64,000 nt of DNA from Escherichia coli (GCF_041248615.1 NZ_CP158426.1), one strand, 5' to 3'; positions 2,356 to 61,983 are shown, numbered from the stretch's first letter. The notes: a model not told the origin generated them from the sequence alone. Program-made: numbers and translations.

Positions 2356-3759
2356 ATGTCTGACCATAATCCACTGACATTAAGACTGAATCTGCGGGAA
2401 AAAATCGCCTATGGTATGGGCGACGTCGGTTCGAATTTAATGCTCTGCATCGGTACTCTGTATCTCCTCAAATTTTATACCGATGAATTAGGGATGCCTG
2501 CTTACTATGGCGGGATTATCTTTCTGGTGGCGAAGTTTTTTACCGCGTTTACCGATATGCTCACCGGATTTTTACTCGACTCGCGGAAAAATATTGGGCC
2601 TAAAGGCAAATTTCGTCCCTTTATTTTATATGCAGCGGTTCCGGCGGCGTTAATTGCAACGCTCCAGTTTATCGCCACCACCTTTAGTTTGCCGGTTAAA
2701 ACGACGATTGCCACCGCACTGTTTATGATGTTTGGACTTTCATACAGTCTGATGAACTGCTCGTATGGTGCGATGATCCCGGCAATTACCAAAAACCCGA
2801 ATGAGCGCGCGCAGCTCGCGGCTTACCGCCAGGGTGGTGCAACCATAGGGCTATTGATTTGTACCGTGGCGTTTATTCCGTTGCAGTCGCTTTTTTCTGA
2901 CTCCACCGTCGGTTATGCCTGCGCGGCACTGATGTTCTCCATTGGTGGCTTTATTTTTATGATGCTGTGCTACAGAGGCGTCAAAGAGCATTATGTGGAC
3001 ACGACGCCAACCGGACATAAAGCCAGTATTCTCAAATCTTTTTGCGCGATATTTCGTAATCCGCCATTGCTGGTTTTGTGCATTGCTAACCTGTGTACCC
3101 TGGCGGCATTTAATATCAAACTGGCGATTCAGGTCTATTACACCCAATATGTGCTGAATGATATTAATTTATTGTCGTGGATGGGATTTTTCAGTATGGG
3201 ATGTATCCTCGTCGGCGTATTACTGGTGCCATTAACTGTAAAATGTTTTGGTAAAAAACAGGTTTATTTAGCTGGCATGGTGCTATGGGCGGTTGGTGAT
3301 ATCCTGAATTATTTCTGGGGAAGTAACTCTTTCACTTTCGTCATGTTCTCTTGTGTCGCCTTTTTTGGCACGGCCTTTGTGAACAGCCTGAACTGGGCGC
3401 TGGTACCAGATACCGTAGATTACGGTGAATGGAAAACCGGTATTCGTGCCGAAGGTTCTGTTTATACCGGTTATACCTTCTTTCGTAAAATTTCTGCCGC
3501 ACTTGCTGGCTTCTTGCCAGGCATTATGCTGACGCAAATCGGTTATGTTCCCAACATCGCGCAAAGTGATGCGACATTACAGGGTTTGCGTCAGCTCATT
3601 TTTATCTGGCCTTGTGCGCTGGCAATTATTGCTGCATTGACGATGGGATTCTTTTACACACTCAATGAAAAACGGTTTGCATTGATTATTGAGGAAATCA
3701 ACCAACGCAAAAATAAAGAGATGGCGACAGAAGAAAAAACAGCTTCCGTAACGTTATAA
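2356..3759 (+). CDS. yihO: GPH-family transporter (sulfoquinovose importer family)
   Basis: ORF track; ATG at 2356 preceded by AAGGAG (2345-2350); protein starts MSDHNPLTLRL. Confidence 0.88.
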   Translation: MSDHNPLTLRLNLREKIAYGMGDVGSNLMLCIGTLYLLKFYTDELGMPAYYGGIIFLVAKFFTAFTDMLTGFLLDSRKNIGPKGKFRPFILYAAVPAALIATLQFIATTFSLPVKTTIATALFMMFGLSYSLMNCSYGAMIPAITKNPNERAQLAAYRQGGATIGLLICTVAFIPLQSLFSDSTVGYACAALMFSIGGFIFMMLCYRGVKEHYVDTTPTGHKASILKSFCAIFRNPPLLVLCIANLCTLAAFNIKLAIQVYYTQYVLNDINLLSWMGFFSMGCILVGVLLVPLTVKCFGKKQVYLAGMVLWAVGDILNYFWGSNSFTFVMFSCVAFFGTAFVNSLNWALVPDTVDYGEWKTGIRAEGSVYTGYTFFRKISAALAGFLPGIMLTQIGYVPNIAQSDATLQGLRQLIFIWPCALAIIAALTMGFFYTLNEKRFALIIEEINQRKNKEMATEEKTASVTL

Positions 3760-3826
3760 ATGTCAATAGCCGCTATTTCCATCCTGGTGGGTGGCGGCCT
3801 CCCTACGTTTAAAAAATGGACTTATT

Positions 3827-4519
3827 ATGAAAAAGATTAATGCAATAATTTTATTATCTTCTCTGACCTCTGCCTCGGTATTTGCTGGCGCATACGTCGA
3901 AAACAGGGAGGCATATAATCTCGCCTCCGATCAGGGCGAGGTTATGCTACGTGTGGGTTATAACTTCGATATGGGCGCGGGTATTATGTTAACCAATACC
4001 TATAACTATCAGCGAGAAGATGAACTAAAACATGGATATAACGAAATCGAAGGTTGGTATCCTTTATTTAAACCAACCGATAAATTAACCATCCAGCCCG
4101 GTGGCTTAATTAATGATAAGAGTATCGGTTCGGGTGGTGCCGTTTATCTGGATGTTAACTACAAATTTACTCCGTGGTTTAACCTGACGGTGCGTAATCG
4201 CTATAACCATAATAATTACAGCTCTACAGATTTGAACGGCGAATTGGATAATAACGACACCTATGAAGTTGGCACCTACTGGAATTTTAAAATCACCGAG
4301 AAATTCTCCTATACATTTGAACCACATTACTTCATGCGAGTAAATGACTTTAATAGCAGCAATGGAAAAGATCATCACTGGGAAATCACTAACACCTTCC
4401 GTTATCGCATTAATGAACACTGGCTCCCTTATTTCGAATTACGCTGGTTAGATCGTAATGTCGAACCGTACCACCGCGAGCAAAACCAGATTCGTATCGG
4501 GACGAAGTATTTCTTCTGA
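3827..4519 (+). CDS. ompL: outer membrane porin OmpL
   Basis: ORF track 3791..4519; ATG at 3827 gives MKKINAIILLSSLTSASVFA signal peptide and a C-terminal aromatic beta-barrel ending (KYFF). Confidence 0.85.
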   Translation: MKKINAIILLSSLTSASVFAGAYVENREAYNLASDQGEVMLRVGYNFDMGAGIMLTNTYNYQREDELKHGYNEIEGWYPLFKPTDKLTIQPGGLINDKSIGSGGAVYLDVNYKFTPWFNLTVRNRYNHNNYSSTDLNGELDNNDTYEVGTYWNFKITEKFSYTFEPHYFMRVNDFNSSNGKDHHWEITNTFRYRINEHWLPYFELRWLDRNVEPYHREQNQIRIGTKYFF

Positions 4520-55957: not shown

Positions 55958-58219
55958 TCATCCCCGACGCAAATTCTGCGCCGCCTGCACCATGTTCGCC
56001 AGTGCCGCGCGGGTTTCTGGCCAGCCGCGCGTTTTCAGGCCACAGTCCGGGTTGACCCACAGACGCTCTGCCGGAATGCGTTTTGCCGCTTTCTTCAGCA
56101 AGGCTTCAATCCATTCTACGCTCGGTACGTTTGGCGAGTGAATGTCATAGACGCCAGGACCGATTTCATTTGGATAATCAAACTCTTCAAACGACTCCAG
56201 CAACTCCATGTCGGAACGCGAGGTTTCGATGGTGATGACGTCTGCGTCCAGCGCCGCAATCGAATCCATGATGTCGTTGAACTCGCAGTAACACATGTGA
56301 GTGTGGATTTGTGTGTCATCTTTCGCCACGGCGGCGTTGATACGGAAAGCCTCCACGCCCCACTGGAGATAGGCATCCCAGTCGCCGCGACGCAGCGGTA
56401 AACCTTCGCGCAGTGCCGGTTCATCAATCTGGATGATGCCAATTCCAGCGGCTTCCAGGTCCGCCACTTCATCACGCAGCGCCAGCGCAATTTGTTTGGC
56501 GATGGTTTCACGGCTGACATCTTCACGCGGGAACGACCAGCAGAGAATAGTCACCGGGCCGGTCAACATCCCTTTCACCGGTTTATCAGTCAGGGATTGC
56601 GCATACTTCGCCCACTCAACGGTAATCGGTGCCGGGCGGCTAACGTCACCAATAACAATCGGTGGCTTCACGCAGCGTGAACCGTAGCTCTGTACCCAAC
56701 CGTTTTGCGTAAAGACAAAACCGTCGAGGTGCTCGCCAAAGTATTCCACCATGTCATTACGCTCGGCCTCGCCATGTACCAGCACATCCAGTCCCAAACG
56801 TTCCTGCTCAACAATGGCCTGCTTGATATGTTCCGCAATGCCCGTGCGGTAGTTATTGGCGTCGAGATTACCCTTTTTAAAATCCAGACGCAGGGTACGA
56901 ATCTCCGTGGTTTGCGGGAAGGAACCAATCGTGGTGGTCGGCCACGCGGGCAGTTTAAAACGCGCACGCTGGGCTTCAGCACGCACTTCATAGACATTCG
57001 CACGCTGACTGTCCTGGGCGGTGATCGCCGCCAGACGCTTTTCTACTGCCGGATTATGAACACGAGTAGAGTGACGACGCGCCTGAATCGGAGCGCTCCA
57101 CTCTGCCAGAGCAGCCGTGTCACCACTGTTCAGCGCATCGCGCAGCAGTGCCAGTTCATGACATTTTTGCAGGGCGAAGGCAAACCAGCTTTTCACTTCT
57201 GCATCAAGACGCGTTTCCACGCTCAGGTCGATGGGGCTGTGCAGCAGTGAGCAGGAAGATGCCACCCACAAATCGCGTTTGCCGACAATGTCCTTAATTT
57301 GCGCATACTTCTCGGTAAGATCGGCGCGCCAGACGTTACGACCATTGATCAGACCCGCAGACAGCAGCCAGTCAGAAGGCAGACGCTTGTGCAGTTCAGC
57401 AACGTCATCTTTACCATGTACAAGATCGACATGCAGACCCTGAACAGGCAGCGCAGTAATCGTGTCGAGATTTGGCGTTACGCCTTCAAAATAGGTGGTC
57501 AGCAGCAGTTTCACCTGTCCCTGGAGCGCGTCGTAAGCGGGTTTGTATGCGTCCAGCCACGCCTGCGGCAGTTCCAGTACCAGCGCGGGTTCATCAATCT
57601 GTACCCACTCAATGCCGCGTTTTGCCAGTTCTGCCAGCACTTGCTGATAAATCGGAAGAATGTCGTTCAGCAGGCTCAGGCGATCAAACTGTTCACCTTT
57701 CACTTTACCCAGCCACAGGTAGGTAACCGGCCCCAGCAGCACAGGTTTCACCTTGTGGCCCAGCGCCAGCGCCTCGTCCACTTCGTCCAGCAGCTGCGTC
57801 CAGGTCAGTTTGAACTGTTGGCCTTTAACGAATTCCGGCACCATGTAGTGATAGTTGGTATTAAACCATTTGGTCATTTCCGCTGCCGCCGCAGGTTCGC
57901 CAGTCGGCGCACGTCCACGACCAATACGGAACAGGGTGTCGATATCTACCGAACCATCTTTGTTCTGATGACGCGCCGGAACGTTACCCAGCAGCAGACT
58001 GGTGGTCAGTACATGATCGTACCAGGCAAAATCGCCCACCGGCAGCAGGTCGATACCCGCTTGCTTTTGTTGATCCCAGTGACGAGCACGCAATTCACGC
58101 CCTACCGCCAGCAGTTCTTCACGCGTGGAGTTCCCCGCCCAATAACTCTCTTGCGCTTTTTTCAGCTCGCGACGCAGGCCAACGCGAGGGAAACCGAGGG
58201 TGTGATTAAGAATTGTCAT
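55958..58219 (-). CDS. metE: cobalamin-independent methionine synthase
   Basis: 753-aa ORF starting [29 protein letters not shown]. Confidence 0.97.
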
Positions 58220-58324
58220 TATATGCCCCTTATGGAATTTTTAGTATTTAGCCGTCCAGATGTTTACACATCCATAATTGGCGGTTACTGTATATTCCTC
58301 AAGCGCAAATTATTCATGCCGAAG

Positions 58325-58337
58325 TGAAGGACTTTCA
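58325..58337. promoter_or_regulatory. MetR binding site in the metE/metR divergent region
   Basis: tgaaggactttca matches TGAA-N5-TTCA; overlaps the metR start codon. Confidence 0.55.
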
Positions 58338-59290
58338 TGATCGAAGTAAAACATCTGAAAACGCTACAAGCGTTGCGGAACTGCGGCTCGCTCGCAGCCG
58401 CTGCGGCGACGTTGCATCAGACGCAATCCGCCCTGTCTCACCAGTTTAGCGATCTGGAACAACGCCTTGGCTTCCGGCTATTTGTGCGTAAGAGCCAGCC
58501 GCTTCGCTTTACACCGCAGGGAGAAATCCTGTTGCAACTGGCAAACCAGGTGCTGCCACAAATTAGCCAGGCACTGCAAGCCTGCAATGAACCGCAGCAG
58601 ACGCGTCTGCGCATCGCCATTGAGTGCCATAGCTGTATTCAGTGGCTGACGCCCGCGTTAGAAAATTTCCATAAGAACTGGCCGCAGGTCGAGATGGACT
58701 TTAAATCGGGCGTGACGTTTGACCCGCAGCCTGCGTTGCAACAGGGCGAGCTGGATCTGGTGATGACGTCAGATATTCTGCCGCGCAGTGGCCTGCATTA
58801 TTCGCCGATGTTCGATTATGAAGTGCGTCTGGTGTTGGCACCTGACCATCCGCTGGCGGCAAAAACGCGTATTACACCGGAAGATCTCGCCAGCGAGACG
58901 CTGTTGATTTATCCGGTGCAGCGTAGCCGACTGGATGTCTGGCGGCATTTTCTTCAGCCGGCAGGCGTCAGCCCGTCACTGAAAAGCGTCGATAACACCT
59001 TATTGTTGATTCAGATGGTTGCCGCGCGGATGGGTATTGCCGCCCTGCCGCATTGGGTAGTAGAGAGTTTTGAGCGCCAGGGTCTGGTGGTGACCAAAAC
59101 CCTGGGCGAAGGCTTGTGGAGCCGACTGTACGCCGCCGTGCGCGATGGCGAGCAGCGTCAGCCGATTACTGAAGCGTTTATTCGCTCAGCGCGCAATCAC
59201 GCCTGCGATCATCTGCCGTTTGTGAAGAGCGCGGAGCGACCCACTTACGATGCACCCACAGTGAGGCCAGGATCACCAGCGCGCCTGTAA
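58337..59290 (+). CDS. metR: LysR-family transcriptional activator MetR
   Basis: 317-aa ORF starting [37 protein letters not shown]. Confidence 0.95.
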
Positions 59291-60077
59291 TGAACGTTGG
59301 CCAGTGCGGCTGTTGGTGCCAGATAGCCAGGTTTACCAGCAGCCCTGCCGGAACGTGCATATTATTCATAATACCCAGCGTTCCGGCGTCTACTTGGGTT
59401 GCGCCGTAGTTCCACATAAAGTAGCCAATCCCGGAAGCCACCACGCCAAGAAACACCAGAATGCCCCATTGCAACGTGGTTTGTGGCATTTTCTGCGCAT
59501 TTCCCAGCAAGAACCATGCAATCACCGCCACCAGGAACGCGCCAAGATAGAACCACGCAAAGGCGTTATGCTGCGGCATCGGGCGAGTTTCCATCAGACG
59601 TTTGTAACCCACCATGCCGATGGCAAAAGTGATATTGGAGAGCTGCACCAGCAGCAGGCCAATCCAGAAGTGGTCGGTGACCTGATCATAGCGAATAATC
59701 CCGGCACCAATCACCGCCAACAAGGCGCTAAAAGCATAGCCCCAGCGCAGACGGCGCTTACTCATGATGTCATAAATCAACGTAATGTAGAGCGGCGTCA
59801 GTACGGTGAACAGCAACAATTCGGAGACCGTCAGGTAGAGATAGGCGCGAAAACTCAGCATATACATCACGCCGAGCTGCATCGCGCCCACCAGCATATA
59901 CAGGCCGACCGTTTTCAGGCTATTGCCACGGGTACGCAGAAACGGCAGAAAAACGAGTGCCGCCAGGCCAACGCGCACCAGCACCGCAAAATAGCTATCG
60001 ACGTGCCCCGCAAGGTACTCGCCATAAAAGCTAAAGGAGAAGGCCCACAGAATCGTGGTGATGATAAGTAGCGCCAC
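59178..60077 (-). CDS. yigM: EamA/DMT-family transporter (biotin uptake, BioP)
   Basis: 299-aa multi-TM ORF; 3' end overlaps the metR 3' end by 113 bp on the opposite strand. Confidence 0.85.
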
Positions 60078-60152
60078 AATGGAAAACTCTTTGATTAACG
60101 AGTATCCATTGTAGCGAAGTATCAGGTTGACAACTGGCCAAATAAAGAACGA

Positions 60153-60953
60153 TTACGATAAATAGAGCTTACGCAGATAATGCGGCACCGCGTCGTCGGC
60201 ATTAGTACCAATCACTTCCAGCTCCGGATGCAGATCTTTCAGACGCTGGTGCGCACTGCCCATAATGCAGCCTTTCCCCGCCATCGACAGCATTTCGGCG
60301 TCGTTCATCCCGTCACCAAACGCAATACAATCCTTCAGGCTGTAGCCCAGTTTCTTCGCCACTGCTTCCAACGCATGGCCTTTCGACACGCCGCCCGCCA
60401 TCACTTCCAGACAGGTTAAGGTAGAGAAACTGACGTTGACGCGATCGCCCCAGCGAGCGTTAATCGCCTGCTCCAGCGGCAGCAGTTGTTCATGGGAATC
60501 GCAGGTGAAGAACACTTTGCTGACGCCTTCCGGCTCCAGTAATCCAGGCTCATACAGCGCATATTTGAACACCGCTTCTTTAAAAAAGCGCATCTCTTCC
60601 GGGCGATGGCGATTCATAAACCATTCGTCGTCGCGATAAACGTTAGTAATGATGTCCGGATTGTCGTTGACTACGCCAAACAGATCGCTGGCAATGTCGC
60701 GATCCAGGTTATGAGCAAAAATCAGATTGCCATCCAGATCGTGAACGCGCGCGCCATTGGAGGTAATCATGTAAGACTTAATCTCCAGATTATCGCGAAT
60801 TTGCCCCACATCAACGTGGTGACGACCGGTCGCAAACACAAAGTTGATGCCGCGCGCGGTGAGCAGCTTCAGAGTTTCTTTGGCGTAAGGGGATAACGTA
60901 TGGTCGGGAGAAAGTAACGTGCCATCTAAATCAGACGCAACAACCTGGTACAT
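60153..60953 (-). CDS. yigL: HAD-family (Cof-like) sugar phosphatase YigL
   Basis: ORF track 60153..61079; ATG (cat 60951-60953) gives MYQVVASDLDGTLL; 266 aa. Confidence 0.88.
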   Translation of the reverse strand: MYQVVASDLDGTLLSPDHTLSPYAKETLKLLTARGINFVFATGRHHVDVGQIRDNLEIKSYMITSNGARVHDLDGNLIFAHNLDRDIASDLFGVVNDNPDIITNVYRDDEWFMNRHRPEEMRFFKEAVFKYALYEPGLLEPEGVSKVFFTCDSHEQLLPLEQAINARWGDRVNVSFSTLTCLEVMAGGVSKGHALEAVAKKLGYSLKDCIAFGDGMNDAEMLSMAGKGCIMGSAHQRLKDLHPELEVIGTNADDAVPHYLRKLYLS

Positions 60954-60960
60954 AAGAAAT

Positions 60961-61983
60961 TTAAACCTCTGTAGAGCGGTTTCCGCTGGGTGAGTTATGC
61001 CTGTTGAAAAAATCAACGATGGCGTGGAGCGCGACTGAGCGCATTGCGTCCTTTTCAAAAAGGATCTCATGGTACGCACCTTTAATTACCAACGGCCGTC
61101 CTCCTTCGACAGGATGGCCCGCAGCGGTGCGGAGTTCACAAAAACGGTCATGCATGCGGTTATCCACCACGCGTTCCTCTTCAGCTTGTAAGAGAAGCGT
61201 TGGCGTGGTGTCATCACCCGCACCGGCTAACACCTGTTCGCCAGCCAGAATACTTTCGCGTACCCAATGGTAGGTCGGCCCACCGACGCGAATCGTTGGG
61301 TCATCAGCATAAAAGCGTAAGTTACGTCGATATCGCTGTCTGCTGTGGGTCAGTACGTTGATAGCAAACGGCAACGCGCGCCAGCGCCCGGTGCCTATTG
61401 CATAGCCATCACGGAAACGTGGATGCGCTTCGGCCCAGTTGAGGATCTGCCGTGCCATAAATGACGGCATACGAATCACGATCCCAAACATTGGCGCAGT
61501 TAGCGCAATGGCGTCACATACACCTGGATGGCGTTGCAGAAATAATGTGGAGATCGCACCGCCCATCGAATGTGCCAGTATATAACGTTTACGCCACGGA
61601 CCGGGCTGAACTTCCTGTTGCCAGAATGCCGCCAGATCATCAACATAATCATTAAAGCGATTAACATGCCCGAGATGCGGATCGGCTAACAGGCGACCGG
61701 AACGTCCCTGCCCGCGATGGTCGATGATTAAGACATCAAACCCCAAATGGAACAGGTCGTAGGCCAGTTCCGCATATTTTACGTAGCTCTCAATACGCCC
61801 CGGGCAGATGACTACCACCCGGTCATGGTGCTGTGCGCGAAAACGGACAAAGCGCACCGGAATGTCATCCACACCAGTAAACTCTGCTTCATCTCGCTGA
61901 CGCCAGAAATCAGTCAGCGATCCCATGGTAAAAGCAGCAAACGCGTTTTCTCTTGTTTCCCAGTCTTTTTGCTGCTGAAACAT
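60961..61983 (-). CDS. pldB: lysophospholipase L2
   Basis: 340-aa ORF; alpha/beta hydrolase with HSMGG nucleophile elbow. Confidence 0.93.
   Translation of the reverse strand: MFQQQKDWETRENAFAAFTMGSLTDFWRQRDEAEFTGVDDIPVRFVRFRAQHHDRVVVICPGRIESYVKYAELAYDLFHLGFDVLIIDHRGQGRSGRLLADPHLGHVNRFNDYVDDLAAFWQQEVQPGPWRKRYILAHSMGGAISTLFLQRHPGVCDAIALTAPMFGIVIRMPSFMARQILNWAEAHPRFRDGYAIGTGRWRALPFAINVLTHSRQRYRRNLRFYADDPTIRVGGPTYHWVRESILAGEQVLAGAGDDTTPTLLLQAEEERVVDNRMHDRFCELRTAAGHPVEGGRPLVIKGAYHEILFEKDAMRSVALHAIVDFFNRHNSPSGNRSTEV

Follow-up and report, generated by a model that had tools for sequence, protein, structure and literature searches.

A conserved 113-bp antiparallel overlap between the convergent metR and bioP (yigM) coding sequences of Escherichia coli

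The DNA analysed here, referred to as the window, is a stretch of 64,000 nucleotides of the Escherichia coli chromosome (GCF_041248615.1, NZ_CP158426.1) in which the gene order around the feature of interest is metE / metR / yigM (bioP) / yigL / pldB. The metR coding sequence occupies positions 58337–59290 of the plus strand, starts with ATG, encodes 317 amino acids and ends with TAA at 59288–59290; this reading is given by the ORF listing, RefSeq, NCBIfam and Pfam. The yigM (bioP) coding sequence runs on the minus strand (59178–60077) from a GTG start through 299 codons to a TAA stop at 59180–59178, as given by the ORF listing, RefSeq, TIGR00950 and Pfam. The 3′ ends of the two convergent genes lie antiparallel on the same 113 bp (59178–59290, both strands), which encode MetR residues 281–317 and the stop in one direction and YigM residues 263–299 and the stop in the other. 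Each gene contributes 36 sense codons, a stop codon and 2 nt of one more codon (F281 of MetR, I263 of YigM), and the original prediction, which spoke of the last 37 codons of each gene, is correct if the stop codon is counted. The 113-bp length that it gave is borne out by the ORF listing, by direct reading and by the RefSeq annotation; RefSeq/PGAP places the same two coding sequences and the same overlap in an E. coli genome that is 100% identical here. The overlap of the two frames is a physical fact of the sequence, because stop codons, unlike start codons, cannot be mis-called. According to the codon map, first codon positions face first positions, second face third, and third face second. 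By elimination this arrangement corresponds to the ‘phase 1’ of a 2025 preprint, in which phase 1 accounts for nearly half of the convergent overlaps other than those of 4 nt. The metR-bioP overlap is already known, being both annotated in RefSeq and published, and it is mechanistically ordinary.

Both partners are well defined proteins. MetR, the LysR-type activator of metE and metH, matches the NCBIfam equivalog NF011950 over its entire length (residues 1–317 of 317, 741 bits against a cut-off of 382) and contains the Pfam domains HTH_1 (residues 5–63) and LysR_substrate (86–288). The PDB entry 5fo5 is identical to residues 1–92, and the regulatory domain of a MetR-like protein from Neisseria (PDB 4ab5) aligns to residues 87–296. 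YigM matches TIGR00950 over residues 11–273 (309.6 bits, cut-off 230.2), carries an EamA domain at residues 139–275, and bears the RefSeq product name ‘bioP: biotin transporter’. Its function as a biotin transporter of the DMT/EamA type with ten helices is known from the literature (PMC5120140, PMC4049904). Outside the overlap both genes are under purifying selection, with pN/pS of 0.07 for MetR and 0.12 for YigM; these and all further pN/pS values are descriptive, obtained by summing Nei-Gojobori comparisons of E. coli with the other 80 members of an 81-sequence set (E. coli and its 80 closest species, one genome per species, all Enterobacteriaceae). The equivalog matches, the PDB entry, the RefSeq annotation, the published phenotypes and the purifying selection all identify the two ORFs as real protein-coding genes.

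The reality of so long an overlap has to be weighed against the record of genome annotation. A survey of 338 genomes concluded that among overlaps longer than 60 bp only convergent ones can be real, that 54 of 178 of these might be, and that most of them are kept only in very close species (PMC2478687). In the same survey most annotated overlaps above 60 bp were errors, including 124 of the 178 convergent ones (PMC2478687), and orthologs of YigM at loci where the genes do not overlap are shorter, at 282–287 aa. Both observations would suit an annotation artefact, in which one of the genes truly ends earlier and has been prolonged by a sequencing error, a frameshift or a spurious 3′ extension. 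We consider this explanation extremely improbable, as the same open frames are found in 5,423 independently sequenced E. coli genomes and stay open in 80 other species without one indel, with the same geometry in the further genera Yersinia, Rahnella and Pectobacterium. The stop codons are unambiguous and both genes have been characterised experimentally. No frameshift, sequencing error or strain-specific stop missing from the orthologs was found among the 5,423 E. coli genomes and the 80 species. By the survey's own criterion, the metR-bioP pair would belong to the minority of ‘possibly true’ overlaps, being conserved far beyond ‘very close species’.

The 1.8-kb locus is present in 5,425 of the 5,426 complete E. 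coli genomes, with coverage of at least 80% in 5,423. All 80 Enterobacteriaceae species have 1,741 bp between the starts of metR and yigM and show no indel there; within the overlap this is expected, as an indel in one tail would damage the conserved end of the partner. Measured to the first in-frame stop, the overlap is 113 bp long in 71 of the 81 Enterobacteriaceae sequences. In seven it reaches 116 bp (MetR of 318 aa), two share only 98 bp (Citrobacter gillenii, L021, and a Pluralibacter MAG, L040, both with a MetR of 312 aa), and a single one, L032, has 68 bp (YigM of 284 aa). The yigM gene ends with TAA at the same position in 80 of 81 sequences; the metR stop is TAA in 56 and TGA in 25, and it moves by one codon (7/81) or to codon 313 (2/81) when the codons of YigM helix 10 change.

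Beyond the Enterobacteriaceae, protein searches and look-ups of exact proteins supplied loci of Yersiniaceae, Pectobacteriaceae and Erwiniaceae and of the more distant Vibrio and Microbulbifer; the basal families Hafniaceae, Morganellaceae and Budviciaceae are outside this sample. In Yersinia, Rahnella, Pectobacterium and a Dickeya-like contig the metR start and the yigM stop are again separated by 841 nt. Yersinia shares 113 bp between the two genes, Rahnella and Pectobacterium 95 bp (MetR of 311 aa) and the Dickeya-like contig 98 bp (MetR of 312 aa), and YigM is 299 aa long in Yersinia, Brenneria, Cedecea and Cronobacter. Each stop codon is thus located inside the partner's coding sequence well beyond the close relatives of E. 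coli, in the Enterobacteriaceae as well as in Dickeya, Pectobacterium, Rahnella and Yersinia. One contig, L095, was considered as a Serratia-like lineage that had kept the overlap; its metR end does overlap, but its MetR end looks Enterobacteriaceae-like, so that the contig may be a chimeric metagenome assembly, and it was left out. Conserved long convergent overlaps of prokaryotic coding sequences have reportedly been described before, by Rogozin et al. in Trends Genet in 2002.

In some lineages the two genes are separated. In Serratia liquefaciens the convergent metR (316 aa) and yigM (287 aa) are 32 bp apart, and this spacer consists of a GC-rich hairpin of 10 pairs followed by a T-tract; a YigM of 285–287 aa is common to Serratia species, Chania and Gibbsiella. 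The spacers of Mixta, Pantoea and Paramixta measure 476–640 bp and carry another ORF: in Mixta calida (MetR 307 aa, YigM 282 aa) 476 bp that include a small ORF separate the genes, and in Pantoea sp. B65 and Paramixta manurensis (MetR 313 and 312 aa, respectively, YigM 287 aa) a DUF1456 gene is placed there. The Serratia and Erwiniaceae loci resemble that of E. coli in the gene pair, in its convergent order beside metE and in the conserved cores of both proteins; they differ in having a spacer with a terminator or an ORF, a YigM of 282–287 aa, and a MetR of 307–316 aa with an unrelated tail. The separating DNA sits in both groups at the equivalent of positions 59231–59243. The cores are retained as far as HLPFVRDA(A/S)R in MetR and SLW(V/I)H(R/K)(R/K)W(V/I) in YigM, and the sequences diverge after these motifs. 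Agreement of gene length with orthologs is the mark of a ‘true’ overlap in Palleja et al. (2008, PMC2478687). Here the lengths agree within each overlapping lineage (YigM 299 aa, MetR 311–318 aa), but compared with the non-overlapping orthologs YigM is longer by 12–17 aa and MetR by 1–10 aa. In Vibrio (transporter of 294 aa) and Microbulbifer (292 aa) the transporter gene is not adjacent to metR. The original prediction asked for the C-termini to be checked against species that lack the overlap, and the ortholog alignment indicates that neither end is mis-annotated in E. coli, although the tails are unrelated in those species.

Both tails fall beyond the conserved folded parts of their proteins. 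The domain models stop at residue 288 of MetR (Pfam) and at residues 275 (EamA) and 273 (TIGR00950) of YigM. An AlphaFold2 model of YigM (pLDDT 88.5, pTM 0.84) has its last helix at residues 259–288 and a pLDDT below 50 for residues 286–299; the model of MetR, built on a shallow alignment of 38 sequences, had a mean pLDDT of 53.5 and was too poor to use, so that the PDB and Pfam boundaries were taken instead. Among representatives of 1.8 billion protein clusters, distant homologs of YigM align up to about residues 270–285 and continue into unrelated tails of roughly 3–25 residues, for total lengths of 270–302 aa. Natural truncations are also found, with MetR proteins of 312 aa (L021, L040) or 311–312 aa (Pectobacteriaceae, Rahnella) and a YigM of 284 aa (L032). 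The last 15–17 or so residues of each protein lie outside what the orthologs conserve.

The 81-sequence alignment divides the overlap into two halves, each evolving as the coding sequence of a different protein. In the first, at 59178–59230, the plus strand encodes the end of the last MetR helix and a conserved motif ending in (K/R)S, opposite the YigM tail (residues 283–299 or thereabouts). The second, at 59244–59290, is driven from the minus strand, on which the second half of YigM transmembrane helix 10 is encoded, with the MetR tail (303–317) on the plus strand. Between them lies a junction (59231–59243) in which A299-E300-R301-P302 of MetR face P282-A281-V280-W279 of YigM and both frames look invariant. 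Nucleotide entropy follows this division. For 59178–59233 it is 0.125, 0.105 and 0.624 at the three MetR codon positions, a classic third-position pattern, and for 59234–59290 it is 0.256, 0.226 and 0.908 at the YigM codon positions, so the frame of the pattern changes midway along the overlap. At the level of single residues, MetR is nearly invariant through (K/R)SAERP up to P302 and highly variable thereafter, with entropies in the tail of up to 3.2 bits, and YigM is invariant through ASLWVHR(K/R)WVAP up to P282 and variable afterwards.

The pN/pS values tell the same. MetR residues 282–299 have a value of 0.11 and YigM residues 264–282 one of 0.31; the opposing passengers, YigM 283–299 and MetR 300–317, reach 1.52 and 1.57, and such values above 1 are not positive selection but an expected artefact, as the synonymous sites of a passenger frame are the second codon positions of its partner. 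Several tail positions are fairly conserved (D305, P307, P311 and S313 in MetR, R291 and E299 in YigM), each of them opposite a conserved codon of the partner. Joint purifying selection on both frames over the same nucleotides was not detected across the overlap, and only the 13-nt junction looks invariant in both. In each half, purifying selection acts on a single protein, and the tail of the other is a weakly constrained passenger. The original prediction held that so long an overlap constrains both proteins. This is right only in part: one frame is constrained in each half, and the constraint is partitioned, not mutual, as judged from pN/pS, from entropy and from the orthologs that drop or swap the tails when the overlap is absent. 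Weak constraint on the tails does not prove that they have no function.

The same division accounts for the stop codons. The TAA of yigM (59178–59180, minus strand) is the antisense of MetR codons F281-I282 (TTT-ATT), of which F281 is invariant and I282 is 98% conserved, and the TAA of metR (59288–59290, plus strand) is the antisense of YigM codons I263-T264 (ATT-ACA). In both cases the partner's conserved sense codons create the stop and freeze it in place.

Taken together, the data are best explained, with a probability of roughly 0.85, by a genuine tail-to-tail overlap, of ancient date, between two housekeeping genes that are unrelated and whose functional cores adjoin without a spacer, the 113 bp being two run-on tails placed back to back. 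The last structural element of MetR would end at about residue 302 and transmembrane helix 10 of YigM at about residue 282, so that the two would abut at 59231–59243. Past this junction, each frame would continue through the antisense of the partner's conserved end to the first stop that chance provides, giving run-ons that we estimate at 15 codons for MetR (303–317) and 17 codons for YigM (283–299). In the long ORFs of the window, stops in this antisense phase occur at 0.051 per codon, gaps between them have a mean of 18.5 and a median of 13 codons, and the probability of a gap of 17 codons or more is 0.41. Tails of 15 and 17 codons match what chance would give, and therefore no selective explanation of their length is needed. 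In several respects the pair is like other long convergent overlaps of coding sequences, in which bona fide genes share 3′ ends of more than 60 bp, convergence being the only orientation that tolerates long overlaps (PMC2478687), and in which a 3′ extension into the neighbour is plausible and one frame has a pN/pS above 1. The metR-bioP overlap departs from the typical case in spanning at least three families of Enterobacterales and in being a two-sided run-on, not a one-sided extension.

The overlap was probably present in the common ancestor of the Enterobacteriaceae, Pectobacteriaceae and Yersiniaceae, and would have been resolved secondarily by insertions at the junction, a hairpin terminator in the Serratia clade and an extra gene in the Erwiniaceae. 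This polarity, in which the overlap is ancestral and disappeared on two occasions, is argued from parsimony on the accepted family-level phylogeny, taken here as background. An ancestral overlap is favoured because the junction is identical across families while the spacers of Serratia, Mixta and Pantoea/Paramixta differ. There is also a weak hint that resolution in Serratia may have occurred by duplication: compared without gaps and in register, the tail of Serratia MetR and the antisense of the yigM end of the same species show 47% identity, against 27 ± 6% elsewhere, the best of about 180 offsets. A stringent local alignment of the Serratia metR tail with its own yigM 3′ end stayed at random level (score 14 versus 13.8 ± 2.3), and the in-register test was negative for Mixta, Pantoea and Paramixta.

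In the opposite scenario, the ancestor had no overlap, and a deletion removed the spacer and both original stops, after which the frames ran on. Loss of a stop codon or deletion is the textbook route to 3′ overlaps (PMC2478687), and the run-on lengths are compatible with chance. The seven-residue YigM tails of Serratia (APKIVSK) and of Pantoea/Paramixta (IGKTVRA, IGQTVSQ) have the same length and are faintly alike, so that the 287-aa form could be ancestral; the Vibrio homolog (294 aa) is unlinked and does not overlap. We nevertheless consider this polarity unlikely, while giving it real weight. The junction and the geometry agree to the nucleotide in Enterobacteriaceae, Yersinia, Rahnella, Pectobacterium and Dickeya, and on the accepted tree several identical, independent deletions would be required against two insertions. 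Furthermore, the Erwiniaceae spacers differ from one another (some hold a DUF1456 gene, another a small ORF that is unrelated to it) and from that of Serratia, as expected of separate insertions, and the 47% in-register identity in Serratia hints at duplication of a former overlap. Either polarity leads to the same present-day mechanism.

The original prediction also held that the overlap forces transcriptional interference or 3′-end antisense pairing between the two mRNAs. The underlying geometry is sound: complementarity of the 3′ ends of the two full-length mRNAs over at least 113 nt follows from the positions of the stops. Each translatable mRNA has to cover 113 nt or more of the partner's coding sequence, because both stops are inside the partner and no terminator-like site was detected in or near the overlap by the terminator scan. 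Folds of 59150–59330 were no more stable than shuffled sequences on either strand (z of −0.61 and +0.75), and Rfam gave no match at E ≤ 1 in 57900–60400. Termination probably occurs through Rho after ribosome release, or through polymerase collision.

One alternative reading is a selected regulatory device. The term excludon, reportedly applied by Sesto et al. in 2013 to convergent pairs with overlapping 3′ transcript ends, would describe metR and bioP if the overlap were kept since convergent transcription or an RNA duplex made the two genes mutually antagonistic, coupling methionine/SAM to biotin uptake. The BioC, BioA and BioB steps of biotin synthesis all use up SAM. Like convergent excludons, metR and bioP are convergent neighbours with complementary transcript 3′ ends, and overlap of transcripts is unavoidable without a terminator; the arrangement is conserved across at least three families. 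An RNA-seq survey (ExcludonFinder, PMC12288877) includes the pair in its core set of 165 convergent excludons of MG1655, a set defined by occurrence in at least 50% of 58 samples. In typical excludons, however, the overlap is in UTRs and the terminator is embedded in the neighbour, whereas metR and bioP overlap within their coding sequences and show no detectable terminator-like element. The defining functional property of an excludon is mutually exclusive expression, whereas bioP-metR is placed in this class by transcript overlap.

Against a regulatory origin, purifying selection on the core of the partner accounts in full for the conservation of the arrangement, as indels in a tail hit the other protein. 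Whole clades (Serratia, Chania and Gibbsiella; Erwiniaceae) separate the genes by a terminator or another gene, and the transporter is unlinked to metR in Vibrio and Microbulbifer. Overlapping 3′ ends are common in E. coli, where 276 of 370 convergent operons (about 75%) have them, by 286 nt on average and with no known function (Conway et al. 2014, PMC4161252), and double-stranded RNA derived from RNase III cleavage is far scarcer at 3′ overlaps than at 5′ overlaps (PMC7373196). We found no paper that pairs yigM with antisense regulation, none reporting RNase III processing of the metR-bioP pair or mutual lowering of expression, and no sign in the literature that the overlap has a regulatory consequence. 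A selected regulatory device is accordingly improbable in our judgement, and the complementary 3′ ends are more readily seen as a probable by-product of the overlap. A specific version is a little less probable still, namely a conserved excludon in which lifting of MetJ repression under methionine/SAM shortage would let metR transcription read into bioP, or let its RNA pair with the bioP mRNA, and so tune biotin uptake. If true, it would link SAM supply to biotin acquisition, and insertion of a terminator, as in Serratia and Erwiniaceae, would have broken this coupling.

The run-on arrangement has consequences for genetic work at this locus. Any clean deletion of metR also takes away the end of helix 10 of the biotin transporter, just as deleting yigM takes away the last helix of MetR, so that single-gene knockout phenotypes here are confounded. 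The design of the Keio collection is said to retain the start codon and the last seven codons of each gene, and a Keio deletion of metR would presumably remove YigM codons from about 271 onwards, that is, half of helix 10 and the tail. Cote et al. (2016) attributed the synthetic lethality of metR with bioA, and the sensitivity of the metR deletion to MAC13772, to concomitant disruption of yigM, and metR deletion phenocopies the loss of yigM (PMC5120140). A Keio-type deletion fits this result and is uninformative on the tail alone. The paper of Finkenwirth (2013) describing the strain makes no mention of metR or of the overlap.

The metR-bioP overlap is real, of ancient date and well accounted for. 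No long-standing question is opened by it and the specialist will not be surprised; in practice it serves mainly as a caution to those who make knockouts at this locus. For genome evolution, it is a tidy textbook illustration of a long antiparallel overlap that has been able to last over very long periods and costs almost nothing: all that either protein surrenders is a disposable tail, and purifying selection on the partner freezes the geometry.

The ORF listing of the window shows an apparent overlap of 119 bp between the end of pldB (60961-61983, minus strand) and the mechanical yigL ORF, a reading frame of 308 aa with a GTG start (60153-61079, minus strand). This overlap was rejected as a start-codon artefact, as RefSeq places the yigL start 42 codons downstream and the resulting 266-aa protein clears pldB. 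An artefact of this type leaves the case of metR and yigM, which share the DNA of their convergent 3' ends, untouched. The same listing contains two long mechanical ORFs on the plus strand, both outside the metR frame: one of 255 aa (59304-60071), antisense to nearly all of yigM, and one of 342 aa (57299-58327), antisense to the 5' part of metE. Long antisense ORFs are expected by chance, because one antisense phase has a stop frequency of just 0.02 per codon across the long ORFs of the window, and no evidence supporting the status of either ORF as a gene was seen.

A contig titled Chryseobacterium sp. 18061 and labelled as Bacteroidota (L058) contains metR and yigM in the arrangement typical of Enterobacteriaceae: the two genes overlap by 113 bp, and their products are 92% (MetR) and 83% (YigM) identical to those of E. 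coli. The contig is probably a contamination or a mislabelled assembly. In a Dickeya-like Logan contig (L082, 556-1455), residues ~205-240 of YigM are scrambled relative to all orthologs and homology resumes afterwards, which looks like a compensating pair of frameshifts (an assembly error) or a gene in decay. Because of this scrambled segment, the protein represents its own 50%-identity cluster, at only 57% identity. An ENA metagenome contig of 1,209 bp (L095) encodes a YigM with 91% identity to the Serratia liquefaciens protein, yet with 299 aa and the tail of the overlap type, and the end of metR on the opposite strand is Enterobacteriaceae-like in appearance. The contig represents either a lineage near Serratia that retained the overlap or a chimeric assembly.

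The overlap was replaced in one hospital isolate, E. coli strain Z135-6 (NZ_CP159632.1). There, metR lacks its 3' two-thirds and bioP (yigM) its 3' three-quarters, and with them the entire overlap is gone; in their place lies ~1.2 kb of DNA encoding a hypothetical protein of 211 aa (L094, 2954-4133). The exchange may be natural or may be an engineered cassette, and both genes are partial pseudogenes according to RefSeq.

In Erwiniaceae, additional DNA separates metR from yigM. A DUF1456-family gene encoding 158-159 aa lies between them in Pantoea sp. B65 (L092, 3551-4027) and Paramixta manurensis (L093, 3537-4016), and Mixta calida (L091) has at this position an 82-aa ORF (3612-3860) in AT-rich DNA, unrelated to the DUF1456 gene of Pantoea and Paramixta. 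In this family, DNA seems to have been inserted more than once at the metR/yigM junction.
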